Of a stretch of 64,000 bases of DNA, positions 19,917 through 32,576 are shown piece after piece. A program made the translations under genes and the position numbers. Source of the DNA: an uncultured Candidatus Binatia bacterium (GTDB lineage Bacteria > Desulfobacterota > Binatia > UBA9968 > JAJDTQ01); contig OZ219754.1 in assembly GCA_964291295.2 (NCBI GenBank), positions 3,584,016-3,648,015 of the forward strand. The letters run 5' to 3'. Below the pieces are notes generated by a model. That model was given only the letters and a program-made list of their open reading frames with translations. It was not told where the DNA came from and ran no database searches. Position 1 is the first letter of the stretch, and every line of letters starts with the position of its first letter.

Positions 19917-21036
19917 CACCCCGGTTTCCACATTCGCGCGGCGGGGCATCGTCGAAGGCTTCTTCGGTCCCCCGTGGAGCCGGGCCCACCGCGCGGCCAT
20001 GTTCGCGTTTGGCGCCGCGCGCGGCATGAACACCTACCTCTACGCACCCAAGGACGACCCCTACCACCGGGAGCGCTGGCATCAGCCCTACCCGGAGACG
20101 GAATGGCGCGAACTCTGCGCGCTCATCGACGCGGCCCGGGGCTGCGGCATCGACTTCGTCTACGGCTTTCACCCGGGCCGGAACCTCCGCTTTGCCGCGG
20201 CGGAACCGGTGCGCCTTCTGCTCGACAAGGCGGCGCGTCTCCAGGATCGGGGCGTGCGCACCTTTGCGGTGCTGTTCGACGACATTCCGTCGCGGCTGAC
20301 GCACACCGAAGACAGGAAGAGGTTCGACGGCAGCCTGGCCAAGGCCGAGTCCCTGTGGCTCGAGGCGGTGCTGGAACAACAGCCCGCGGGCCGCGATGCG
20401 GCGTGGTGGTTCTGTCCCTCGTACTACACGCCCGACCCGCTGTTGGCCCAGACCTTCGGCGAGTTCGAGCCGGAGTTCCCCGAGACCGTCGGGCGGTACC
20501 TGCCGGCGCCGGTCGACTGCTTATGGACCGGCCCCAAGGTGGTGCCGGAAAGCGTCACCCTGGAACACATGGAGGAGATCGGCCAACGGATGGGTCACCG
20601 GCTGCTGCTCTGGGACAACTACCCGGTCAACGACCTGACCCGGGCCGACGCCATGCATATCGGCCCCCTCACCGGCCGAGACCCGCGGCTGCCGGAGCGG
20701 GTGCACGCGCACTTGGCCAACCCGCTCCTGCAGGAGCAGCTCAGCTTCATTCCCCTGGCCACCTGCTTCGACTATGCGCGGGAGCCCGGCACCTACGACC
20801 CGGAAACGAGTTGGGATGCGGCGGTGACGGAACGGTTCGGCGCGGCCCACCTGGAACACTGGCGGGCACTCCGGCGGTTCTGCGAACAGGATGCCGGCGG
20901 CGGCGCGGCGAGGTGCCCCGAGTCCGAGCGGGGCACGCTGGAAGCGGCCCACGCCTACCTGCAGGCCCACCGCGGCGAAGCGTGGTGCCGTGAATTCGAG
21001 CCGTGGCGGGAGCGGCTGGAACAGGCGCTCCGGTAA
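19888..21036 (+). CDS. GH84 beta-N-acetylglucosaminidase (O-GlcNAcase-like catalytic domain, no signal peptide)
   Basis: RGIVEGFFGPPWS, YLYAPKDDPYHRERW, catalytic LFDDI, WTGPKVV and WDNYPVND. Start codon uncertain. Confidence 0.9.
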   Translation: MPGCTTWVRNTPVSTFARRGIVEGFFGPPWSRAHRAAMFAFGAARGMNTYLYAPKDDPYHRERWHQPYPETEWRELCALIDAARGCGIDFVYGFHPGRNLRFAAAEPVRLLLDKAARLQDRGVRTFAVLFDDIPSRLTHTEDRKRFDGSLAKAESLWLEAVLEQQPAGRDAAWWFCPSYYTPDPLLAQTFGEFEPEFPETVGRYLPAPVDCLWTGPKVVPESVTLEHMEEIGQRMGHRLLLWDNYPVNDLTRADAMHIGPLTGRDPRLPERVHAHLANPLLQEQLSFIPLATCFDYAREPGTYDPETSWDAAVTERFGAAHLEHWRALRRFCEQDAGGGAARCPESERGTLEAAHAYLQAHRGEAWCREFEPWRERLEQALR

Positions 21037-21040
21037 CATC

Positions 21041-22348
21041 ATGGACGACAGGACCGTCACCACCCGCGAACTGCTGGCAACCCTGGAAGAGGTCCGTTCC
21101 CGGACCCTGGGTCTGGTGGAGGATCTGTCCGGCGCGCAACTCACCGTGCCCATGTGGAACATCGTCAATCCCCCGCTCTGGGAGATCGGACATGTCTCCT
21201 GGTTCCACGAACGGTGGGCGCTGCGGCATCTGCGCGGCCGCCGCCCCATCATTGCCAACGGCGACCAACTGTACGATTCCGCGGCCGTGCACCACGACAC
21301 CCGCTGGGCGCTGGCGCTGCCGCCGCTGGAGGAAACCCTCGCCTACAAGGCCCGGGTCCTCCGGGAGATCACCGAAGCGCTTCCCGCCCAACGGCTCGGT
21401 CCGGAGGAGACCTGGTTCCACAGGCTGGTCCTCTTTCACGAGGACATGCACGCGGAGGCCATGACCTACACGCGCCAGACCCTGGGCTATCCCCCGCCTC
21501 GGTTCGCGTCCGGACGCGCGGCGCCCCGGGGCGGGCCGTGCCCCGGCGATGTGGCGGTGCCGGGCGGTGCGTTCATCCTCGGCGGCACGCCGGATCTGCC
21601 CTTCGTCTTCGACAACGAGAAGTGGGGGCATCGGGTGACCGTGGCACCATACCGCATGGCCCGGGCGCCGGTAACCAACGAAGCGTTTGCCGCATTCGCC
21701 GACGACAACGGCTACCGGAATCCCCGGTGGTGGAGCACCGAGGGCTGGAACTGGCGGCAGGCCGAGAACCCGGCGCATCCCGTCTACTGGAAGCGGGAGG
21801 CCCCGGGGCGGTGGCTGGAGCGGCTCTTCGACCGATGGTTGCCACTTCAGCCCGAACTGCCGGTCATCCACGTCAACTGGTACGAAGCCGAGGCCTGGTG
21901 CCGCTGGGCCGGACGCCGGCTGCCCACCGAGGCGGAGTGGGAAATGGCCGCGGCCTCCGGTCCCGGCCCGGGAGCGGCCAAGCGCGGCTACCCGTGGGGC
22001 GACGCCCCGCCGGACCCGGCCTGCGGCAATCTCGACTGGGCGGCCGGCGGACGGCTGCCCGTGGACGCGCTGTCCGCGGGCGACAGCGCCTTCGGCTGCC
22101 GGCAGATGATCGGCAATGTGTGGGAGTGGACAGCCGACACCTTCCACCCCTATCCCGGATTCGTGCGGGATCCCTACAAGGAATACTCGGAACCCTGGTT
22201 CGGCCACCGCAAAGTGCTGCGCGGCGGCTGCTGGGCCACCCGCTCGCACCTGATCCGCAACACCTGGCGGAACTTCTTCACGCCGGACCGGCGGGACGTC
22301 CTGGCCGGCTTTCGCACCTGCGCGCGCGAGCGGCACGACCGCCGCTAG
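21041..22348 (+). CDS. senA: Selenoneine synthase SenA (EgtB-like DinB plus FGE-sulfatase domains)
   Basis: NPPLWEIGHVSWFHERW, LYDSAAVHHDTRW, FHEDMHAEA (Fe-binding His), FDNE, RRLPTEAEWE, GNVWEW, PYKEYSEPWF and RNFFTPDRRD. Immediately upstream of senB. Confidence 0.9.
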   Translation: MDDRTVTTRELLATLEEVRSRTLGLVEDLSGAQLTVPMWNIVNPPLWEIGHVSWFHERWALRHLRGRRPIIANGDQLYDSAAVHHDTRWALALPPLEETLAYKARVLREITEALPAQRLGPEETWFHRLVLFHEDMHAEAMTYTRQTLGYPPPRFASGRAAPRGGPCPGDVAVPGGAFILGGTPDLPFVFDNEKWGHRVTVAPYRMARAPVTNEAFAAFADDNGYRNPRWWSTEGWNWRQAENPAHPVYWKREAPGRWLERLFDRWLPLQPELPVIHVNWYEAEAWCRWAGRRLPTEAEWEMAAASGPGPGAAKRGYPWGDAPPDPACGNLDWAAGGRLPVDALSAGDSAFGCRQMIGNVWEWTADTFHPYPGFVRDPYKEYSEPWFGHRKVLRGGCWATRSHLIRNTWRNFFTPDRRDVLAGFRTCARERHDRR

Positions 22349-22361
22349 ACTGGAAGACAAC

Positions 22362-23342
22362 TTGGCACGAAAGAACCCCGCGCCGACCCGGGTTGCCCTC
22401 GTGACCCCCGCCGGGCCCACGCGGCGTACGGGCAACCGGATATCCGGAGGCAGGTGGGCGCGCATCCTCCGGGCCTCGGGACATCGGGTTGCAGCCCTGG
22501 ACCGATATGAACGCGAGCCCTGCGACCTGCTGATCGCACTCCACGCCCGGCGCAGCCATGACTCCATCCGGCGGTTCCGCGACCGGCATCCCGGCAAGCC
22601 GCTGGTCGTGGTGTTGACCGGCACGGACCTCTACCGCGACATTCACGTGGACCCGGACTCCCGGGAATCCCTGGGGTTGGCCGACCGCCTGGTGGTGCTG
22701 CAGCGCAAGGGGCTGGACGAACTCGCTCCGGGGCTGCGCGGGAAGACCCGGGTCATCTACCAGTCCGCCTCGGCCCGCCCCGGCCGCCCCGGCGACCCCG
22801 GCAAGCAGTTCACCGTGGCCGTGGTGGGCCACATGCGCCCGGAGAAGGACCCGTTCCGGACGGCCATGGCGGTGCGTTCATTGCCGCGCGCATCACGGGT
22901 CCGGGTGGTGCACATCGGCGCCGCCTTCAGCAACGGCATGGCCCGGCGCGCGGCGCGGGAGGCGGAACGCAATCCTCGCTACCGGTGGCTGGGCGAACTG
23001 CCCCACTGGAGGACGCGGCAACTCCTGGCCAACAGCCACCTGGCCTCCCTCACCTCGCGCATGGAGGGCAGCTCGAACGTCCTGTGCGAGGCGCTGGCCT
23101 CCAGCGTACCCGTGGCGGCCTCCAGGATCTCCGGACTGATGGGCACCCTGGGAGAAGATTTTCCGGGCTACTACGAACTCGGCGACACCGCCGGCCTGAA
23201 GCGCCTGCTGCTCCGGGCCGAGAACGACCCGCCTTTCTACCAGAGCCTGGCGCGGCACTGCGCCGAGGTGGCGCCGCTGGTGAATCCCGAGCGCGAGATC
23301 CGGACGTGGCAGGGATTGATCGATGAGCTTACGACGGGTTGA
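22362..23342 (+). CDS. senB: Selenosugar synthase SenB (GT-B glycosyltransferase)
   Basis: VTPA...TGNRIS..RWARIL, IALHARRS, VLTGTDLYRD, GHMRPEKDP and SRMEGSSNV. TTG start 13 bp after senA. Confidence 0.92.
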   Translation: MARKNPAPTRVALVTPAGPTRRTGNRISGGRWARILRASGHRVAALDRYEREPCDLLIALHARRSHDSIRRFRDRHPGKPLVVVLTGTDLYRDIHVDPDSRESLGLADRLVVLQRKGLDELAPGLRGKTRVIYQSASARPGRPGDPGKQFTVAVVGHMRPEKDPFRTAMAVRSLPRASRVRVVHIGAAFSNGMARRAAREAERNPRYRWLGELPHWRTRQLLANSHLASLTSRMEGSSNVLCEALASSVPVAASRISGLMGTLGEDFPGYYELGDTAGLKRLLLRAENDPPFYQSLARHCAEVAPLVNPEREIRTWQGLIDELTTG

Positions 23343-23366
23343 AGCGAGGGACCGGTCGGACAGCAC

Positions 23367-24524
23367 TCAGCCGGACAGCACCTCGATCAGATTGTCCGCC
23401 ACGGTGTCCAACTCGCGGCGGGTGATGACCAGCGGCGGCAGCAGCCGGATCACCGTCGATCCCGCGGGCAGCGCCAGCACGCCTTTCTCCAGCAACGCCA
23501 CGAGATGGGGCTGGGACTTCTCCCTGAGTTCGATGCCGATCATCAAGCCCAGCTGGCGGATCTCTCGAACCCTGGGCAAATCCGCGGCCCTGAGCCGCTC
23601 CACCAGACGGGCACCCTTCTCCTCGGCGGCCTCGGCCAGCCGCTCGTCGATCATGGCGTCGATGGCCGCCAGCGCGGCGGCGCATGCCAGCGGGTTGCCG
23701 CCGAAGGTGCTGCCGTGGCGCCCCACCGGCACCTGGACGTTGTCGGCGCAGACCACCGCGCCCATGGGGATGCCTCCGGCCATGGCCTTGGCCAGGCACA
23801 GGATGTCGGGCTCGAGACCGAAATGCTCGCAGGCGAACATCCGGCCGGTGCGGCAAAAGCCGGTCTGGACCTCGTCGACAATGAAAAGGACGCCCCGCTC
23901 CCGGCACAGTTCGCTCACCTGGGCGAAGAACTCGGCCTGGCCCAGATTGACGCCGCCCTCGCCCTGGACGATCTCCAGCATCACCGCTGCGGTGCCGTCA
24001 TTCACCTTCTCCGCCAACTTGGCGAAGTTGTTGAAGGGCGTGAACTGGAAGCCCTCGACGACGGGCAGGAAGGGTTCGCGGTACTCCTTCGTGAACGTGG
24101 CGCTCAGCGCCCCCATGGTGCGGCCGTGAAATCCGCGCATGGCGCACACGAACTCCTGCCTGCCGGTGGTGAAGCGGGCGAACTTGATGGCCGCCTCGAT
24201 GGTTTCGGTGCCCGAGTTGCACAGGAAGGCGCGGTTGAGATTGCCGGGGGTGATGCCGGCCAGCCGTTCCAGCAGCCGCGCCCTGACGTCGTTGTAGAAG
24301 ATGCCGGGGCAGCTCATCAGACGTCCGGCCTGCTCGGCCACCGCCCGCACCACTCCGGGGTGGCCGTGCCCCAGGTTGGCGACGCCGTGGCCGGCCACAC
24401 AGTCGATGTACTCACGACCCTCGTCGTCCCAGACCCGGGCGCCCTCGCCGCGCACCAACACGACGTCGCGCTTGGGATAGACATCGAACTCGTACCGTTG
24501 CTGCAACGCCTTCAGGTCCGTCAC
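23367..24524 (-). CDS. lysJ: [LysW]-aminoadipate semialdehyde transaminase (class III PLP aminotransferase, ArgD/LysJ)
   Basis: NSGTETIEAAIK, GFHGRT, EIVQGEGG, DEVQTG, LAKAMAGG and HGSTFGGNP. Last gene of the lysW cluster. Confidence 0.9.
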   Translation of the reverse strand: MTDLKALQQRYEFDVYPKRDVVLVRGEGARVWDDEGREYIDCVAGHGVANLGHGHPGVVRAVAEQAGRLMSCPGIFYNDVRARLLERLAGITPGNLNRAFLCNSGTETIEAAIKFARFTTGRQEFVCAMRGFHGRTMGALSATFTKEYREPFLPVVEGFQFTPFNNFAKLAEKVNDGTAAVMLEIVQGEGGVNLGQAEFFAQVSELCRERGVLFIVDEVQTGFCRTGRMFACEHFGLEPDILCLAKAMAGGIPMGAVVCADNVQVPVGRHGSTFGGNPLACAAALAAIDAMIDERLAEAAEEKGARLVERLRAADLPRVREIRQLGLMIGIELREKSQPHLVALLEKGVLALPAGSTVIRLLPPLVITRRELDTVADNLIEVLSG

Positions 24525-25312
24525 CGGATCACCGTTCCTTTCCCCGCCAGGGCGTCCCGCACCGGATGCGCCACCCGGCCGTCGCCCATGATGACCTTTT
24601 TCGCGCCCTCCTCGAACAGCTGGCGCAGAGCCCGCATCTTGCGCTTCATGCGCCCTTCCACCTGGGCCTCCCGCTGCTCGAGTTCGGCAACGCGGAGGGC
24701 GGGCACCACGGTGCTCTCGTCGTCCTTGTCCGCGAGAAACCCGGGTGCCTCGATGAGTTGCAGCACCACCTCGGCATGAAAGGCGGCCTGGAGCACGTTG
24801 AGGATGTCGTCGTTCTCCGAGTTGATGGCGGTGTGGTGCTCGTCGAGAATGGGGATGGACAGCACCGGCACGTAGCCCCCGTCAAGCAGCCACTGGAACA
24901 ACTCCTTGTTGGCGCTCCTGGGCTTGCCGGAGAAGTCCCGGACGATGACGGTCTTGCCGTTCTTCCGCACCCGGATGCCCTTGTTGCGCCGTCCCTGGAT
25001 GGCGCGGCCGTCGATGCCCGAGAGGCCCACGGCGTTGACCCCGTTCTGCTGCAGCAACTCCACGATGCGCTTGTTCTGAACGCCCGCGTAACCCATGAGG
25101 ATGGCGTCGAGCGCGGCCTTGTCGGAAAGCACGCTGGTGTAGCCCGACACCGACGTCACCACCTGGGTGGGGCTGCCCAGCCTGGCCGCGATGGCGTCCC
25201 GCAACGCGTTGGCGCCGTGCACCACGATGAAACGGTCCGTTGCCGAGGCCAGATCCTCGGCAATGCCCGGCAGGTTGATGGCGCCGCCGCCGCCGACCTT
25301 CACCAGAATCAT
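24521..25312 (-). CDS. lysZ: [LysW]-aminoadipate/[LysW]-glutamate kinase
   Basis: MILVKVGGG, VVHGANA, VTSVSGYTS, GLSGIDG, GRMKRKM and GKGTVI. Start at 25312 (ATGA overlap). Confidence 0.9.
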   Translation of the reverse strand: MILVKVGGGGAINLPGIAEDLASATDRFIVVHGANALRDAIAARLGSPTQVVTSVSGYTSVLSDKAALDAILMGYAGVQNKRIVELLQQNGVNAVGLSGIDGRAIQGRRNKGIRVRKNGKTVIVRDFSGKPRSANKELFQWLLDGGYVPVLSIPILDEHHTAINSENDDILNVLQAAFHAEVVLQLIEAPGFLADKDDESTVVPALRVAELEQREAQVEGRMKRKMRALRQLFEEGAKKVIMGDGRVAHPVRDALAGKGTVIR

Positions 25313-25947
25313 CGGAGCCGCTCCACCGTGTCGTTGGGGATCATGCGCCACTCCGGCAGGTCCGCCACGGTCTCGGAACTGACGGTGAAACCGCCGCCGC
25401 TCTCGCGCAAGCGCAGCCTGAAGTACTCCGGCGCCTCGTTGTAGAACGATCCCACGTAGACATTCTCCCGGTCCGCGATGATCATGTTCATGGCCCGGAC
25501 GTAGCGCGTCCTGCGGACCAGCAGATCCATCCCCTTGCGCAGGGCCGCGGCCATGTCGCCCTTGTCGAAGCGCTTGATGGTGTTGAACACCTTTTCCGCG
25601 CCGATGCGGCCTTCCGCGCGGATCCGGACACCCCGCAACTCGCCGTTGAACGCGAACACGTACCGGTGGTCGGAGAACGGCATGTTGTTCTCCACCACGA
25701 CGTTCTCGTCCCGGAACGCGCTGCGGGCATGACCCACCAGCAGCGTCGTGGCGCCGAACCGATCCAGGTCGTCCTCCCAGATGGGCCTGATGTTGCGATA
25801 GATCCGCCACGCGCCGTCCACGAGGAAGGCGCAGCCCCAGCCGTGACCCTGGTATTCGGGGCTGCGGCGGGCGATGTCGGCCAGCTCCGTCAGGCGCGAG
25901 CCGATGTCGAACGGCTCCCGGTTCTTGACGCACAACAGGCGGCACAT
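25309..25947 (-). CDS. Class II glutamine amidotransferase / Ntn-hydrolase (EgtC/YafJ/Dug3-like)
   Basis: N-terminal nucleophile MCRLL, HGWG, GHARSA, NNMPF, FAFNGEL and SSE. Stand-alone, 212 aa. Confidence 0.88.
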   Translation of the reverse strand: MCRLLCVKNREPFDIGSRLTELADIARRSPEYQGHGWGCAFLVDGAWRIYRNIRPIWEDDLDRFGATTLLVGHARSAFRDENVVVENNMPFSDHRYVFAFNGELRGVRIRAEGRIGAEKVFNTIKRFDKGDMAAALRKGMDLLVRRTRYVRAMNMIIADRENVYVGSFYNEAPEYFRLRLRESGGGFTVSSETVADLPEWRMIPNDTVERLR

Positions 25948-25966
25948 GGCTGACGGCCCGGACGCG

Positions 25967-27019
25967 CTAGGCGCCCGGGTGCAGCCCCGGGAACTCCAGT
26001 CCCAGGGTCTCCTCGAAGCCGCTCATGAGGTTGAAGGCCTGAACCGCCTGGCCCGAGGCGCCCTTCATGAGATTGTCCAGCGCGCTCAGCACCACCAGCC
26101 GGTCCGACCCTTTCTCCTTCTGGAAACCGATGTCGCAGTAATTGGTGCCGCTCAGCAGCTTCGGTTCCGGATAGCGGTAGATCCCGTCGGCCTCCTTCAC
26201 GATGCGGAGAAAAGGCTCCCTGCCGTAGACCTCGCGGTAGAGCTTCCAGACATCCTTTTCTTCAAGCGGTTCCTTGAGGAACAGGTGGCAGGTGGCCAGC
26301 ACCCCCCGCACCCTCTCGATGGAGGTGGCGGAAAAGTAGACCCGGATGGGCTTGCCGAAACCCAGTTCCTGGACGATCTCCGCGCCGTGGCGGTGCCGGG
26401 TGGGCATGAACGAGCGCACGGCGCCGCTCCGTTCCGGATGGTGGGACGCGTCGGTGGCAACGCGGCCGCCCTCGCTGGAGCCCACCTTGACCTCCACCAC
26501 CGTGCGGTCCGTGTCCACCAATCCTTTGCTGAAGAACGGGTAGATGCCGAGGATGGTGGCGGTGGCGTTGCAGCCGGCGCCGGTGACGAGACGCGCGCCC
26601 CGGATCTCCTCGCGGTGCAGTTCGGGAACGCCGTAGACGAACTCCTCGAGGAGATCCGGGCGCGGGTGGTGCGTCCCGTACCAGCACCGGTACGCCTCCG
26701 CGTCGTTGAGCCGGAAGTCGGCGCTCAGGTCGATGAGCTTCGGCGCCAGTGCCCGGAACGAATCGATGCGCTCCATGGCCTGGCCGTGGGGCAGGCAGAG
26801 GAACAGCAGGTCGCACGGCTTGATTTCGTCCATCGTGCGGAAGCGCAGCTGCGTCCGCTTGCGCAGATTGGGATGGGCCTTGAACAGAAACTTGCCGGCG
26901 TAGCGCTCCGAGGTGACGTCGCCGACCTCCACCCGGGGGTGCCAAAGGAGCAGGCGCAGGAGCTCGCCGCCGGTGTAGCCGGAGCCCCCCACGATGGAGA
27001 CCCTCAGCTTGTCCGCCAC
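25967..27019 (-). CDS. lysY: [LysW]-aminoadipate 6-phosphate reductase (ArgC/LysY)
   Basis: IVGGSGYTGGELLR, IDLSADFRL, YGVPE, GCNATA, SHHPERSG and DNLMKGASGQA. GTG at 27019 with a GGAGG RBS. Confidence 0.9.
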   Translation of the reverse strand: MADKLRVSIVGGSGYTGGELLRLLLWHPRVEVGDVTSERYAGKFLFKAHPNLRKRTQLRFRTMDEIKPCDLLFLCLPHGQAMERIDSFRALAPKLIDLSADFRLNDAEAYRCWYGTHHPRPDLLEEFVYGVPELHREEIRGARLVTGAGCNATATILGIYPFFSKGLVDTDRTVVEVKVGSSEGGRVATDASHHPERSGAVRSFMPTRHRHGAEIVQELGFGKPIRVYFSATSIERVRGVLATCHLFLKEPLEEKDVWKLYREVYGREPFLRIVKEADGIYRYPEPKLLSGTNYCDIGFQKEKGSDRLVVLSALDNLMKGASGQAVQAFNLMSGFEETLGLEFPGLHPGA

Positions 27020-27074
27020 GGCTGCCGCCCTCCTCCCCGGCACGTCCCGCGCATCCGCTCCCCGCGCCGGCCCA

Positions 27075-27947
27075 TCAGGCCACGTCCCTGCGCGCCTGCT
27101 CTTCCCGCGCCGCGCCGAGCACATGCGCGACGATGAGCCCGGGAATGTTCACCCCGGTGGTATCGATGCTGTTCCGGAACTCCATGGTGTAGTTGACTTC
27201 GTTGACCAGAAGGCCGCCGACGGTTTCAAGCAGGTCCACCGCAACGATACCGCCGCCCACCGCCCGGGCGGCGCGGAGCGAGAGGTCTCGCAACTCGTCC
27301 GTGACCGGGCAGTTCTCGGCGCGTCCTCCCCGGGCCGTGTTGGTGATCCAGTGCCCGCTGTAGCGGTAGATGGCGGCGACGCACGCGTCGCCCACGACAA
27401 AGCTCCGGATGTCGCGCCCGGTCTTCTCGATATACTCCTGAACGTAGAAGATGGAGTGGTGGTAACTGCCCAGGATCGCCTTGTGTTCGAGGATCGTTTC
27501 GGCCGCGTCCCGGTCGTTCACCTTGGCCAGCAGCCGGCCCCAGGAGCCCACCGCCGGCTTCAGCACCACCGGGTAGCCCATCGCCTCGATGGCCTCCAGG
27601 GTGGATTCCTCGGTGAAGGCGATGCGCACCTCGGGCTGGGGCACGCCGTGCTCCTGCAGGTGTACCGAAGTGAGGATCTTGTCGCCGCATACCGTGGCCA
27701 CCGACGACGCGTTGATGCAGCGCACCCCCGCGCTCTCGAAGAGCCGCAGCCCGTGCAGCGCCCGGGAATGGTTGATGCACCGCTCCAGCAGAACGTCCAG
27801 GTCGAACCGGTCCTTGCCCAGGTTGAATGCGAGCCGCCGGTCGTCGATCAATTGGAGTTCCACGCCGGCATGCCGGCGAAACTCCTTGATCAGCAGCTTC
27901 TCCTCCGGGCGCACCAGTGAATGCAGCAACCCGATTTTCAAGCTCAT
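27075..27947 (-). CDS. lysX: Alpha-aminoadipate--LysW ligase (RimK-like ATP-grasp)
   Basis: [33 protein letters not shown]...[10 protein letters not shown] and [11 protein letters not shown] (LysX-type rather than ArgX-type signatures). Confidence 0.95.
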
Positions 27948-28108
27948 TCCCCCCAGTCTTCCTCTTCCTGGGGCGCCTCTTCCACCGCCGGAGGATCCAG
28001 GCTGGTGACCTCCAACTCGATACCGCAGTCGGCACAGGCGATCAGCTCGCCCTCCACCGCGTCATCCTCCAGTTCCAGTTCCGCGTCGCATACCGGGCAC
28101 TCAACCAT
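27944..28108 (-). CDS. lysW: Amino-group carrier protein LysW (54 aa; not in the ORF track)
   Basis: [54 protein letters not shown], with two CxxC motifs, the EDWGE C-terminus, a GGGAGG RBS and an ATGA overlap with lysX. Confidence 0.97.
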
Positions 28109-28321
28109 CGACGGATACCTCCCTGTTACGTGGAATCACTCGCAAGCCCCCGGCCCACGCATCGCCAACGCGGGCGGGATGCTCCCGGCCGGCGCGGATA
28201 CCGGCCGCGGCGCGCCGGCCATCAACGAGGCCGGTTCGGGTCGGCTCGCCCCGTGTTCCGGCCGGGGCCGGCAATACCGCGGCCGGCCGGTGCTTCTGTC
28301 CTCGCGGCCGCCGCCAACGCC

Positions 28322-29353
28322 TCACAATCCGTAGTAACGCTTGGGATTGTCGCACAGGATCTTCTTGCGCAGACCGGGGCTGACATCCTCCCGGGCAAAG
28401 AAGTCCGGCAGATCGCGGAAGAATTCCGAGCGCGCCCGCTCGTGGGGAAAGTCCGAGGCCCACAGCACCTGATCCCCGCCGAGCCTCTCCAGCACGTATG
28501 GCAGCGCCTTCTCGTCCACCTCGCAGGTGAAGAACAGGTTGCCGCCGCGAATGATGTCGCTCGGGCGCTGCCTCACCGCCAGCGCCGCGCCGCGCCGCTC
28601 CCAGTTCTCGTCCAGCGCGTCCATCATGAACGGCACCCAGCCGGTGCCGCACTCCAGGTAGGCCACCCGCAGGTCGGGGAAGCGGTCGTACACGCCGGCG
28701 TTGATCATGCTCATCATCTGCACCATCTGCGGCATGGCGTGCTCCAGCGGTCGCGCCTCGGCCAGGCTCTCGAAGATGTCGAGGCCCAGGCCCGCCACCG
28801 GACCGCCATGGACCGCCAGCGGACAATCCAACCGTTCCGCTTCGGCGTAGATCGGGTCGAACCGGCTTCCCCCCAGACCCGCCAGCGGCGCCATCACGGA
28901 CGGGATCACGCCCGCCACCATTCCCAGTTCGTCCACGCACCGGCGCAACTCCGCGACCGCGGCGTCGATGTCCTGCACCGGCAGCAGCGCCACCCCCTTG
29001 AGCCGGTCCGACTGACGCCCGAAACAGTCGTACAGCCAGTCGTTGTAGGCCCGGGCCACGGCCGTCGCCCAGCCCTTGTTCCGGATCTGGCCGTGGAACA
29101 GCGCGTTGCTGGGATAGAGGATGGTCCGGTGGATCCCGGACTCGTCGAGAAAGCTCAGCCAGTTGGCCGCGTCCGGCACCTCCGCCTTGTGGCGGGACGA
29201 CATGCCGCGCATCCAACCGTCGGTGAGGGGAAACAGGTAATACTCCCGGGTCCAGTCCTTCTCGGACCAGGGCGCGGGCAGATAGCGGCGCAGGTCCTTG
29301 TCCTGGTCCACCACGTGGCCGTCGGCGTCGATAATGTCATGTTCGCATTCCAT
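28322..29353 (-). CDS. Amidohydrolase_2 family protein
   Basis: IDADGHV, ARAYNDW, VAYLECGTGWVP, WASDFPH and DNPKRYYGL. Confidence 0.92.
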   Translation of the reverse strand: MECEHDIIDADGHVVDQDKDLRRYLPAPWSEKDWTREYYLFPLTDGWMRGMSSRHKAEVPDAANWLSFLDESGIHRTILYPSNALFHGQIRNKGWATAVARAYNDWLYDCFGRQSDRLKGVALLPVQDIDAAVAELRRCVDELGMVAGVIPSVMAPLAGLGGSRFDPIYAEAERLDCPLAVHGGPVAGLGLDIFESLAEARPLEHAMPQMVQMMSMINAGVYDRFPDLRVAYLECGTGWVPFMMDALDENWERRGAALAVRQRPSDIIRGGNLFFTCEVDEKALPYVLERLGGDQVLWASDFPHERARSEFFRDLPDFFAREDVSPGLRKKILCDNPKRYYGL

Positions 29354-29398
29354 GTCGGCCTCCACCGCCGGACTCGTGCGGCACCCCGGCGTCGTGCC

Positions 29399-30868
<1,470 letters not shown>

Positions 30869-30945
30869 GCGTGTCTCCTCGAGGCCCGTGCCGCACGTCA
30901 TGAAAAGGCTTGCGGCGCAGAACACCCGCACTGGGCGTGTGGAGG

Positions 30946-30974
30946 ATTAAAAAAGACCGGCGGTTCCGTGTCAA
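30946..30974 (-). promoter_or_regulatory. Sigma70 promoter for the ALDH-amidohydrolase(-lys) genes
   Basis: Minus strand TTGACA (30974-30969), 17-bp spacer, TTTAAT (30951-30946). Confidence 0.65.
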
Positions 30975-30988
30975 GCGTTCACCGGCAT

Positions 30989-31018
30989 TTGCGGCAACCC
31001 TCCGGCGCCCTCTATACT
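30989..31018 (+). promoter_or_regulatory. Divergent sigma70 promoter for rnhA-ychF
   Basis: TTGCGG, 18-bp spacer, TATACT, 23 bp upstream of the rnhA ATG. Confidence 0.5.
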
Positions 31019-31041
31019 TGCCGCTTCCCGGACCCACCGCC

Positions 31042-31521
31042 ATGAGACACGTCACGATCCATACCGACGGCGCATGCCTCGGAAACCCCGGACCGGGAGG
31101 CTACGGTGCCGTGCTTCTCTGCGACGGCAAGCGCAGGGAGTTGAGCCGCGGTTACCGCAGAACCACCAACAACCGCATGGAGATCATGGCCGTCCTGGCC
31201 GCCCTCCGATCCCTGAAGGAATCCTGCCGGGTGACCCTCTACAGCGATTCCCGCTACGTCGTGGACGCCATGGCCAAGGGATGGGCGGAGCGCTGGCGCG
31301 CCAAGGGGTGGAAACGGGGCAACAACGCCCCCACCCTGAATCCCGATCTCTGGGCCGAGATGCTGGAGCTGTCACACCGCCACCAGGTCGAGTTCCGCTG
31401 GGTCAAGGGCCACGCCGGCAACCGGGAGAACGAGCGCTGCGACCAGTTGGCGGTGGCGGCGGCGAGCGGTGGGACGCTGGCGCGCGACGAGGTGTACGAG
31501 CAGAAGGGCGGGAAACAATGA
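31042..31521 (+). CDS. rnhA: Ribonuclease HI
   Basis: TDGACLGNPGPGG, TTNNRME, DSRYV, WVKGHAG and NERCDQLA. Confidence 0.97.
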   Translation: MRHVTIHTDGACLGNPGPGGYGAVLLCDGKRRELSRGYRRTTNNRMEIMAVLAALRSLKESCRVTLYSDSRYVVDAMAKGWAERWRAKGWKRGNNAPTLNPDLWAEMLELSHRHQVEFRWVKGHAGNRENERCDQLAVAAASGGTLARDEVYEQKGGKQ

Positions 31522-32576
31522 AGGTGGGGCTCACCGGATTTTCCCGGGCGGGCAAGACCACCCTGTACAACGCCCTTACGGGCCTGAACATCGCGGTGGG
31601 CGGTTTCGAGGCACGCCGCGAGGCGGCCATGGCGGTGGTCAAGGTGCCGGACCCTCGCGTGGACGCGCTGAGCGGCATCGTCCACCCCAGGGAGAAGAAG
31701 TACGCGGAGATCACGTTCCTGGACTTCCCGCCGTCGCAGGAACGGAAAGCGGCGCTGGAGACCCGCTCCCTGACGCAACTGCGCGAAGTGGACGCCCTGG
31801 CCCAGGTGGTGCGGGCCTTCGACGACCCGCTGGCCAACGAGCCGCCGGCGCCCCTGCGGGAGCTCGACGCCTTTCAGGCCGAGTTGATTCTGGCCGACCT
31901 GGCCGTCATCGAGAAACGCCTGGAGCGAATCCGCAAGGAGGCCGTGAAGGCACGGGAGCGGGAGCTGGAGACGGCCCTTCTCGACCGCTGCCAGCGCGCC
32001 CTGGAAGAGGAGCAGCCGTTGCGCGGACTGGAGTTCCTGCCGGAGGAACGAACCCTGCTCTCGGGCTTCTCCTTCCTGAGCGTCAAGCCGCTGCTGGTGG
32101 TGTACAACGCCGGCGAGAGCGCGCTTCAGGAACCGCTGCCCGCCGGCATCGTGGAATACGCCCGGACCGGAAACCTCACCGTGGTGCCGTTCTGCGGCAA
32201 GCTCGAGATGGAGGTGGCACAACTCGATGACGACGAGCGCGCCGGATTTCTTTCGGAACTGGGGCTCTCGGAGACCGCCCGGGACCGCTTCATCCGCCAC
32301 GCCTATGACCATCTCCGCCTCATGAGCTTCTTCACCGCCGGTCCCTCGGAGGTGCGCGCCTGGACCATCACCCGGGACACCGCCGCGGTCCACGCCGCCG
32401 GCAAGATCCACTCCGACATCGAACGCGGCTTCATCCGCGCCGAGGTCATCGCCTACGCCGACTACATCGAACACCGCGGCGAAGCCGGCTGCCGCGCCGC
32501 CGGCAAGCTGCGCCTCGAAGGCAAGGACTACCGGGTCCAGGACGGCGACGTGATGCACATCCGGTTCAATGTGTAA
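31518..32576 (+). CDS. ychF: YchF/OLA1 family ATPase (atypical paralogue with TGS/DUF933 domain)
   Basis: GFSRAGKTTLYNALT, VKVPDPRV, FFTAG..EVRAW, AGKIHSDIERGFIRAEV and RLEGKDYRVQDGD..IRFNV. ATGA overlap with rnhA. Confidence 0.9.
   Translation: MKVGLTGFSRAGKTTLYNALTGLNIAVGGFEARREAAMAVVKVPDPRVDALSGIVHPREKKYAEITFLDFPPSQERKAALETRSLTQLREVDALAQVVRAFDDPLANEPPAPLRELDAFQAELILADLAVIEKRLERIRKEAVKARERELETALLDRCQRALEEEQPLRGLEFLPEERTLLSGFSFLSVKPLLVVYNAGESALQEPLPAGIVEYARTGNLTVVPFCGKLEMEVAQLDDDERAGFLSELGLSETARDRFIRHAYDHLRLMSFFTAGPSEVRAWTITRDTAAVHAAGKIHSDIERGFIRAEVIAYADYIEHRGEAGCRAAGKLRLEGKDYRVQDGDVMHIRFNV

Follow-up and report, generated by a model that had tools for sequence, protein, structure and literature searches.

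In textbooks, the LysW, or amino-group carrier protein (AmCP), pathway illustrates that the biosynthetic routes to lysine and arginine share an origin; to our knowledge, LysK has hitherto been the only release enzyme known for it. In the present study, we analyzed a stretch of 64,000 nucleotides (hereafter, the window) from contig OZ219754.1 of an uncultured Candidatus Binatia bacterium, in which a cluster of lysW-pathway genes contains the gene for a stand-alone hydrolase of 212 aa with a class II amidotransferase fold (Table 1). Judging from sequence comparison and structure prediction, this protein is probably an N-terminal nucleophile (Ntn) amidohydrolase that has Cys as its N-terminal residue and the gamma-carboxamide of the C-terminal residue of LysW as its target. 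The original prediction, that the hydrolase replaces LysK, is supported by comparison, namely by linkage, complementarity with LysK, fold, a predicted complex, and the occurrence of LysW with a terminal Gln.

A passage of PMC12998189 describes LysK as the hydrolase of the LysW pathway and as a homologue of argE. The enzyme of the present study is proposed to share the reaction and the pathway place of LysK, that is, hydrolysis of the amide between the gamma-carboxyl group of the C-terminal Glu of LysW and the alpha-amino group of the product, and the two were mutually exclusive in the gene clusters compared (see below). However, LysK (about 340-380 aa) has a di-metal centre, whereas the 212-aa hydrolase has a Cys N-terminal nucleophile and an unrelated fold; a Pfam/NCBIfam scan gave no M20 match for it, and its relation to LysK is one of functional analogy, not of family membership. 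The gene positions also differ, lysK being found after lysJ or beside lysX and the hydrolase gene between lysY and lysZ. Furthermore, the hydrolase could also deamidate a carrier that ends in Gln, whereas nothing seen suggests such an activity for LysK.

In structure, the best match of the hydrolase is EgtC (Protein Data Bank (PDB) entries 4zfj, 4zfk, and 4zfl). The titles of these entries present EgtC as an Ntn hydrolase to which glutamine and the natural gamma-glutamyl substrate bind. The hydrolase and EgtC are both stand-alone class II domains with an N-terminal Cys. However, they are only 18-20% identical, the gene neighbours are egt genes in one case and the lysW cluster in the other, and the substrate is a small molecule for EgtC but would be the C-terminus of a protein for the hydrolase. 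The glutaminase domains of GlmS and PurF (GATase_4 and GATase_6) also have the same fold and would share a thioester mechanism with the hydrolase. In contrast to these enzymes, the hydrolase has no synthase domain, and its Pfam scores are below the gathering thresholds.

The likeness to EgtC that had been predicted for the hydrolase holds mainly for the fold, as seen with Foldseek; in sequence the protein is weakly EgtC-like, with 40 bits against the EgtC equivalog TIGR03442 (cut-off 218.65) and 21.2 bits against PF13230 (GATase_4; gathering threshold 23). Some of the homologues have a precomputed PF13230 match. The AlphaFold2 model of the hydrolase has a pLDDT of 93.2 and a pTM of 0.90. Its top Foldseek matches in the PDB are the three EgtC structures (E 3e-14, TM 0.79-0.82), behind which rank a pair of stand-alone class II domains that are uncharacterised, together with glutaminase domains from PurF and GlmS. 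The Foldseek probability is 1.00 for EgtC, the PA1307-like protein 1te5, 3mdn, PurF, and GlmS, which points to a four-layer alpha-beta-beta-alpha Ntn fold for the model. A profile search against PDB sequences found the same proteins, as weak matches. In an hhalign comparison with the GlmS of the same genome, which had a very low probability and ended at residue 106, the N-terminal Cys of the hydrolase aligned with that of GlmS, H73-A74-R75 with HTR, and N101-G102 with NG. We take the Arg of HTR and the NG of GlmS and PurF to be the carboxylate-binding residue and the oxyanion hole, respectively.

The Cys of the hydrolase directly follows the initiator Met, where a class II Ntn nucleophile is placed, in the motif MCRLL, and the translation also contains the other motifs noted in the original prediction (HGWG, GHARSA, and FNGEL). 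Among 28 members of the family, with identities down to 27%, C2, R3, Q33, G36, W37, G38, P55, W57, R75, P90, N101, G113, G116, N154, Y175, and S191 are invariant, and Gly102 is nearly so. A word-indexed search gave 3086 homologous proteins at E <= 0.001, nearly all of 207-224 aa. Where the source names them, they are 'glutamine amidotransferase' or 'hypothetical' and, at best, 'class II glutamine amidotransferase'. An exhaustive HMMER search of 1.84 billion cluster representatives gave only 348 matches at E <= 0.001, so that the family is a compact one, separate from most amidotransferases. Two apparent fusions, of the hydrolase with LysZ (P0178) and of LysY with the hydrolase (P0240), seem to be gene calls affected by frameshifts; low-complexity stretches separate their parts, and they were not used as evidence.

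To what genes is the family linked? In a contig scan with one genome per species, 491 of 600 pattern matches encoded relatives of the hydrolase, and the best 80 loci were kept. The hydrolase gene stands beside lysW-pathway genes in every one of these 80, so that the tie of homologues to lysW clusters, which the original prediction implied, holds throughout the best loci. Both lysY and lysZ are present in 60 of them, with the hydrolase gene between the two or beside lysY, and lysX in 69. By record title, the loci come from Binatia, Ignavibacteriota, Calditrichota, Bacteroidota, Rhodothermota, Gemmatimonadota, Pseudomonadota, Planctomycetota, Myxococcota, and metagenome-assembled genomes (MAGs) labelled as archaeon. 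In the loci from outside Binatia, a gene between lysW and lysX starts with a motif of the homocitrate/isopropylmalate-synthase type, and three loci also have homoaconitase-like and homoisocitrate-dehydrogenase-like genes; these homocitrate-type assignments were judged on N-terminal motifs and on 30-40% identity to leuA, leuCD, and leuB of the genome of the window, not on family models. Given such neighbours, the usual setting of the hydrolase family seems to be an aminoadipate-lysine cluster.

Some of these loci differ in arrangement. On one Binatia-labelled chromosome (L031:2631-12168), lysY-hydrolase-lysZ-lysJ occurs twice in tandem, the second lysZ being matched in part. In eight loci labelled as Gammaproteobacteria or Thiotrichales (L054, L068, L075, L079, L080, L082, L087, and L090), the cluster ends after the hydrolase gene (lysW-lysX-lysY-hydrolase); lysZ and lysJ are missing from the flank or lie farther off, as in L054 (9 kb). 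The carrier ends in Gln in six of the seven of these loci with a readable LysW, and L080 shows no LysW. Two or three lysX-like ligase genes are found both in loci with the hydrolase (L048 and L059) and in loci without it (L117, L119, L120, L133, L144, L161, L173, and L184), and these may reflect separate loading of Lys and Arg as in bifunctional systems.

For comparison with clusters lacking the hydrolase, we used 80 metagenome loci (L108-L187) seeded with LysW sequences, first with that of L104, a cluster without the hydrolase; the patterns left out the last residue. No hydrolase gene was found in any of these 80 loci; lysX is present in 52 of them, and lysY together with lysZ in 25. As queries for LysK, we used five M20 genes that lie beside lysJ or lysX, all five of which pass the model for [LysW]-lysine hydrolase, NF003367 (369.6-416.7 bits, cut-off 363). 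The candidate M20 open reading frames (ORFs) of L157, mis-extended over lysJ with false lysJ matches, and of L119 were excluded. Of the 80 metagenome loci, 17 contain a LysK-like gene, and 16 of these belong to the 25 that have lysY as well as lysZ; seven of the remaining nine of these 25 end at a contig edge no more than about 450 bases past the last cluster gene (lysZ or lysJ). In contrast, the same five queries found no LysK-like gene in the 80 loci that carry the hydrolase, where the lone M20 match (L044, 25% identity, 8.5 kb away on the other strand) is unrelated. Thus, the anti-correlation with lysK expected of a replacement was observed at the level of the cluster (0/80 versus 17/80; Fisher p = 6e-6, which overstates the contrast because the rows are related).

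The distribution among genomes is in line with that among loci. In the class of the window, the hydrolase was found in seven of 121 genomes, LysX scored over its cut-off in the same seven, and LysK in none of the 121; one unpublished genome (G233) is included in this tally, where it falls among those without LysX or LysK over cut-off and does not by itself carry any of the conclusions. The seven carriers are all seven genomes of the genus of the window, and no carrier was found among the other 114 of the class, a pattern that suggests acquisition of the LysW module, including the hydrolase, as a unit by this genus. Similarly, in the class of a locus labelled Melioribacter (G267), the hydrolase was found in eight of 101 genomes, LysX in the same eight, and LysK over cut-off in none of the 101. 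LysK was also below cut-off or absent in all of five hydrolase carriers of other lineages, which had been chosen as carriers.

A physical contact between the hydrolase and LysW is predicted as well. Using alignments of 28 hydrolases and 16 LysW, the modelled complex had an ipSAE of 0.62 (0.60, 0.62, and 0.65 in three runs), as compared with 0.01 for the best of three controls. The mark of 0.62 is reached by 58 of 80 solved complexes and two of 110 mismatched pairs, a calibration that is approximate here, as our own alignments were used. The runs share at least 95% of the contacts, with a partner pLDDT of at least 79. The predicted interface comprises residues 1-2, 75, 77-78, 89, 100-110, 115-117, 119-120, 126, 142, and 146-148 of the hydrolase and residues 20-22, 33, and 45-54 of LysW, the last of which form the C-terminal tail. 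On the side of the hydrolase, this would be the catalytic pocket (Cys2/Arg75/Asn101) together with the conserved stretch E103-L104-R105-G106-V107-R108. The model thus passed its controls and places LysW on the catalytic pocket and on a conserved basic surface, which fits the basic docking patch that had been anticipated, and it supports binding of the LysW tail in the pocket of the hydrolase. We know of no solved complex of an Ntn enzyme with LysW.

The termini of the carriers themselves differ between the two sets of loci. Among 65 LysW sequences in hydrolase loci, 49 end in Glu (EEDWGE or QEDWGE), 15 in Gln (EEDWGQ), and one is masked, whereas all 52 LysW that adjoin lysX in loci without the hydrolase end in Glu (15/64 versus 0/52 with Gln; Fisher p = 1e-4, with rows that are not independent). 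On the tree of the hydrolase, the Glu/Gln state requires at least eight changes, three of which are forced by well-supported branches. The Gln-ended carriers are labelled Pseudomonadota, Ignavibacteriota, Bacteroidota, and Calditrichota, with one delta-proteobacterium locus and one archaeon-labelled MAG; LysW of the window and of all 20 close relatives in the tree ends in Glu. LysX requires a free gamma-carboxylate on LysW, and therefore a Gln-ended carrier needs prior deamidation. Gln-ended LysW may be tolerated only where the hydrolase is present because, as we propose, the hydrolase would deamidate it. Apart from these carriers, 28 of the 80 metagenome loci (for example, L109, L118, L121, and L129) encode small LysW-like zinc-ribbon proteins ending in EEDWNE, EEDWSE, EEDWTE, EEEWRE, or similar residues, with no lysX in the locus; these may be carriers of other pathways, or may lie on short contigs.

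From the observed gene order, family distribution, fold, and predicted interface, we infer the substrate and every catalytic step as follows. Removal of Met1 would expose Cys2 as the N-terminal nucleophile, and the acidic tail of LysW (...EEEDWG-E) would dock on the conserved basic surface of the hydrolase (residues 103-108 and 114-126), so that the terminal Glu, with the finished amino acid on its gamma-carboxyl group, could enter the pocket of Cys2, Arg75, and Asn101-Gly102. Cys2 would then attack the gamma-carbonyl; lysine (or ornithine) would leave, a gamma-glutamyl thioester of LysW would remain, and water would regenerate LysW-Glu. The net reaction would be that of the M20 metalloenzyme LysK, carried out by an unrelated fold, and the same chemistry would convert a gene-encoded C-terminal Gln of LysW to Glu.

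In the genome of the window, which is assembled in three contigs and 99.13% complete, the expected absence of LysK was borne out. No M20 gene was seen among the ORFs of positions 20000-32000 (Pfam/NCBIfam), and a search of the whole genome, in six frames and at full length for NF003367, found no LysK orthologue; TIGR01902 reached 42.3 bits at most (cut-off 163.1), and NF003367 reached 74.5 bits. The genome holds nine M20 genes, none of them close to the LysK models; their best families are carbamoylase/allantoate-amidohydrolase-like, dipeptidase-like, PepT-like, and generic ArgE/DapE-type (fragments were scanned, so that the scores are underestimates).

Several observations weigh against the replacement of LysK by the hydrolase. 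One of the nine M20 genes, several of which are of the generic ArgE/DapE type, could release the product. Furthermore, the genome has argB, argD, argG, lysA, and dapF clustered at about 1488800-1497000, outside the window, and also argJ and argC_other, all over their cut-offs (LysA, 523 bits; argC_other, 373.9 bits, elsewhere in the genome than lysY). With LysA, DapF, and the acetyl-arginine genes present, the LysW module is neither the sole lysine route nor the arginine route, and therefore is not needed to close an essential gap. Such redundancy is common, as LysA is over cut-off in three of five other hydrolase carriers; it weakens the argument from a missing step and leaves the evidence of linkage untouched. 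In the sample of the phylum of the window, LysX is over cut-off in four and the hydrolase present in two of 151 genomes, and the two other LysX-positive genomes (G025 and G036) have neither the hydrolase nor LysK over cut-off. Both are fragmented (310 and 430 contigs) and about 90% complete; in one of the two clusters (L104), lysY is directly followed by lysZ and the contig ends right after lysJ, and in the other, the contig is cut inside lysY. The converse, LysK carriers without the hydrolase, was compared at the level of loci; in the phylum of G271, which consists of small-genome archaea, LysK was over cut-off in none of 121 genomes. Finally, the score of the predicted complex expresses the confidence of a model and is not a measurement.

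How else might the linkage be explained? The hydrolase might only mature the carrier, converting the C-terminal Gln of LysW to Glu, with release of the product left to an unlinked M20 hydrolase. Hydrolysis of a glutamine amide is the native chemistry of the fold, nearly a quarter of the linked LysW (15/64) end in Gln, and generic ArgE/DapE-type M20 genes, all below the LysK cut-off, occur here and in the five other carriers. However, 49 of the 64 linked LysW, including those of the window and its 20 close relatives, already end in Glu, and the hydrolase gene is kept at 75-87% identity in these relatives; thus, deamidation alone cannot account for its retention in these organisms. In addition, where there is no Ntn gene, LysK usually lies in the cluster, but it is missing from all of the hydrolase clusters, and we regard maturation alone as an improbable role. 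We give about as little credence to a glutaminase or gamma-glutamyl amidase that acts on free substrates rather than on LysW, either to supply glutamate or ammonia for transaminations or to proofread by-products. EgtC, YafJ-like proteins, and other stand-alone class II domains do act on small molecules, and the closest folds are of that kind. Against this stand the predicted interface with the LysW tail, which passed its controls, the pattern of Gln-ended LysW, which points to the carrier terminus, and the strict pairing with LysX in 15 of 15 genomes from two classes, which is closer than would be expected of a helper glutaminase.

Two further alternatives were considered. SenA, a relative of EgtB, and SenB are encoded directly beside lysJ (Table 1), and with EgtC as the best structural match, the hydrolase might be an EgtC-type enzyme of these selenoneine/ergothioneine genes. 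But SenA and SenB lie on the opposite strand, convergent to lysJ, and adjoin the cluster in 21 of the 80 loci, all close relatives, and in none of the other 59; the link was rejected on this distribution. The hydrolase also falls far below the EgtC cut-off, and its gene shows translational coupling to lysZ. Since selenoneine is made by way of a selenosugar rather than gamma-glutamylcysteine, its route is not known to need an EgtC step. Of all the alternatives, we consider this by far the least credible. A somewhat less remote one, though still doubtful, is that the LysW module of this genus does not serve lysine but ornithine, salvage of aminoadipate, or another amino compound, in which case the hydrolase would still release the product. 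It is in favour of this that LysA, DapF, and a full acetyl-type arginine pathway are present, that the cluster lacks the homocitrate-synthase-like gene of other phyla, that no homocitrate synthase is over cut-off in the genome (homocitrate-synthase-like genes score as LeuA and CimA only), and that genes for an Amidohydro_2 protein and an aldehyde dehydrogenase are conserved upstream. On the other hand, LysZ passes the equivalog model for [LysW]-aminoadipate kinase and is below cut-off on the bifunctional models, and in all other respects the gene order of the cluster matches that of lysine clusters in other phyla.

The set of LysW-pathway genes in the window is complete for a carrier with a C-terminal EDWGE tail together with LysX, LysZ, LysY, and LysJ (Table 1). 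By NCBIfam and Pfam scores, LysW, LysX, and LysZ exceed their equivalog cut-offs, LysY exceeds that of argC, and LysJ exceeds only that of the argD subfamily. The ORFs and family scores bear out the order lysW-lysX-lysY-Ntn gene-lysZ-lysJ and the tight packing that had been read from the minus strand: the ATG of the hydrolase gene lies 19 nt past the stop codon of lysY (TAG), and its TGA overlaps the ATG of lysZ as ATGA. Furthermore, the stop of lysW overlaps the start of lysX, and the start of lysJ overlaps the stop of lysZ by 4 nt. The coordinates of lysY are those of its longest ORF; because the argC model (TIGR01850) matches this ORF only from residue 41 onward, translation probably starts near 27016. 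The GC content of the window is about 0.68.

Table 1. Genes of the lysW cluster and its neighbours (positions are those of the window)
Feature	Position	Strand	Basis of assignment
SenA and SenB, selenoneine genes	20891-23342	plus	NF041186 507.4 bits (cut-off 420) for SenA; TIGR04348 383.7 bits (cut-off 300) for SenB
lysJ, class III aminotransferase	23367-24524	minus	PF00202 374 bits; argD-subfamily TIGR00707 419.6 (cut-off 410.05); LysJ_Th_th 469.9 (below cut-off 700)
lysZ, [LysW]-aminoadipate kinase	24521-25312	minus	NF010659 243.4 bits (cut-off 223)
Stand-alone Cys1 Ntn hydrolase (class II amidotransferase fold), 212 aa; candidate stand-in for LysK	25309-25947	minus	Sub-threshold PF13230 and TIGR03442; fold; context
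lysY, [LysW]-acyl-phosphate reductase (ArgC family)	25967-27124 (longest ORF)	minus	argC TIGR01850 383.9 bits (cut-off 233.6)
lysX, ATP-grasp ligase loading the substrate on LysW	27075-27947	minus	TIGR02144 346.4 bits (cut-off 275.6); PF22626, PF08443
lysW, amino-group carrier protein, 54 aa, C-terminus ...EEEDWGE	27944-28108	minus	TIGR01206 68.9 bits (cut-off 53.2); PF21344 65.9 bits
Amidohydro_2 gene and aldehyde dehydrogenase gene	28322-30931	minus	

The two genes upstream of lysW are on the same strand as the cluster, and the best match of the aldehyde dehydrogenase is alpha-ketoglutaric semialdehyde / 2,5-dioxovalerate dehydrogenase, below cut-off. Synteny with relatives extends from the aldehyde dehydrogenase and Amidohydro_2 genes through lysW...lysJ to SenB and SenA, which lie on the opposite strand. 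Some 20 Binatia-labelled loci have, between Amidohydro_2 and lysW, a gene for a class III (omega-type) aminotransferase of 462 aa (for example, L016:6316-7704). The window is without this gene and has a 213-bp spacer at 28108-28322; the rest of the genome offers no match better than 36% identity.

In a search of full-text papers, with subscription journals and supplements outside its range, we found none in which an Ntn enzyme or a class II amidotransferase is linked to LysW/AmCP pathways; in PMC3249071, the sole passage in which LysW was found is a list of ATP-grasp enzymes. Most likely, the hydrolase cuts the finished amino acid off the carrier and would thus be a new enzyme in an established pathway, a non-homologous protein standing in for the usual last enzyme. 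On balance, though with less assurance than for the amidohydrolase activity itself, we favour the wider reading that a Cys1 Ntn hydrolase displaced LysK in carrier-protein pathways of about 10 phyla (by record title) and works through a covalent thioester. Such an enzyme would hydrolyse any gamma-amide at the carrier terminus, so that Gln-ended and Glu-ended carriers would be equivalent, and it would both prime the carrier and release the product; in genomes like that of the window, the purpose of the module may be a product or condition other than housekeeping lysine.

If this is true, an apparent gap in the pathway would be closed in automated reconstructions for hundreds of species, as more than 3000 protein clusters carry the family, and carriers encoded with a terminal Gln would be explained. 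The compact hydrolase family would thereby gain its first function, and the C-terminus of a protein would join the substrates of the enzymes with the Ntn amidotransferase fold. It would also offer a metal-free tool for cutting gamma-glutamyl-linked cargo off carrier proteins.

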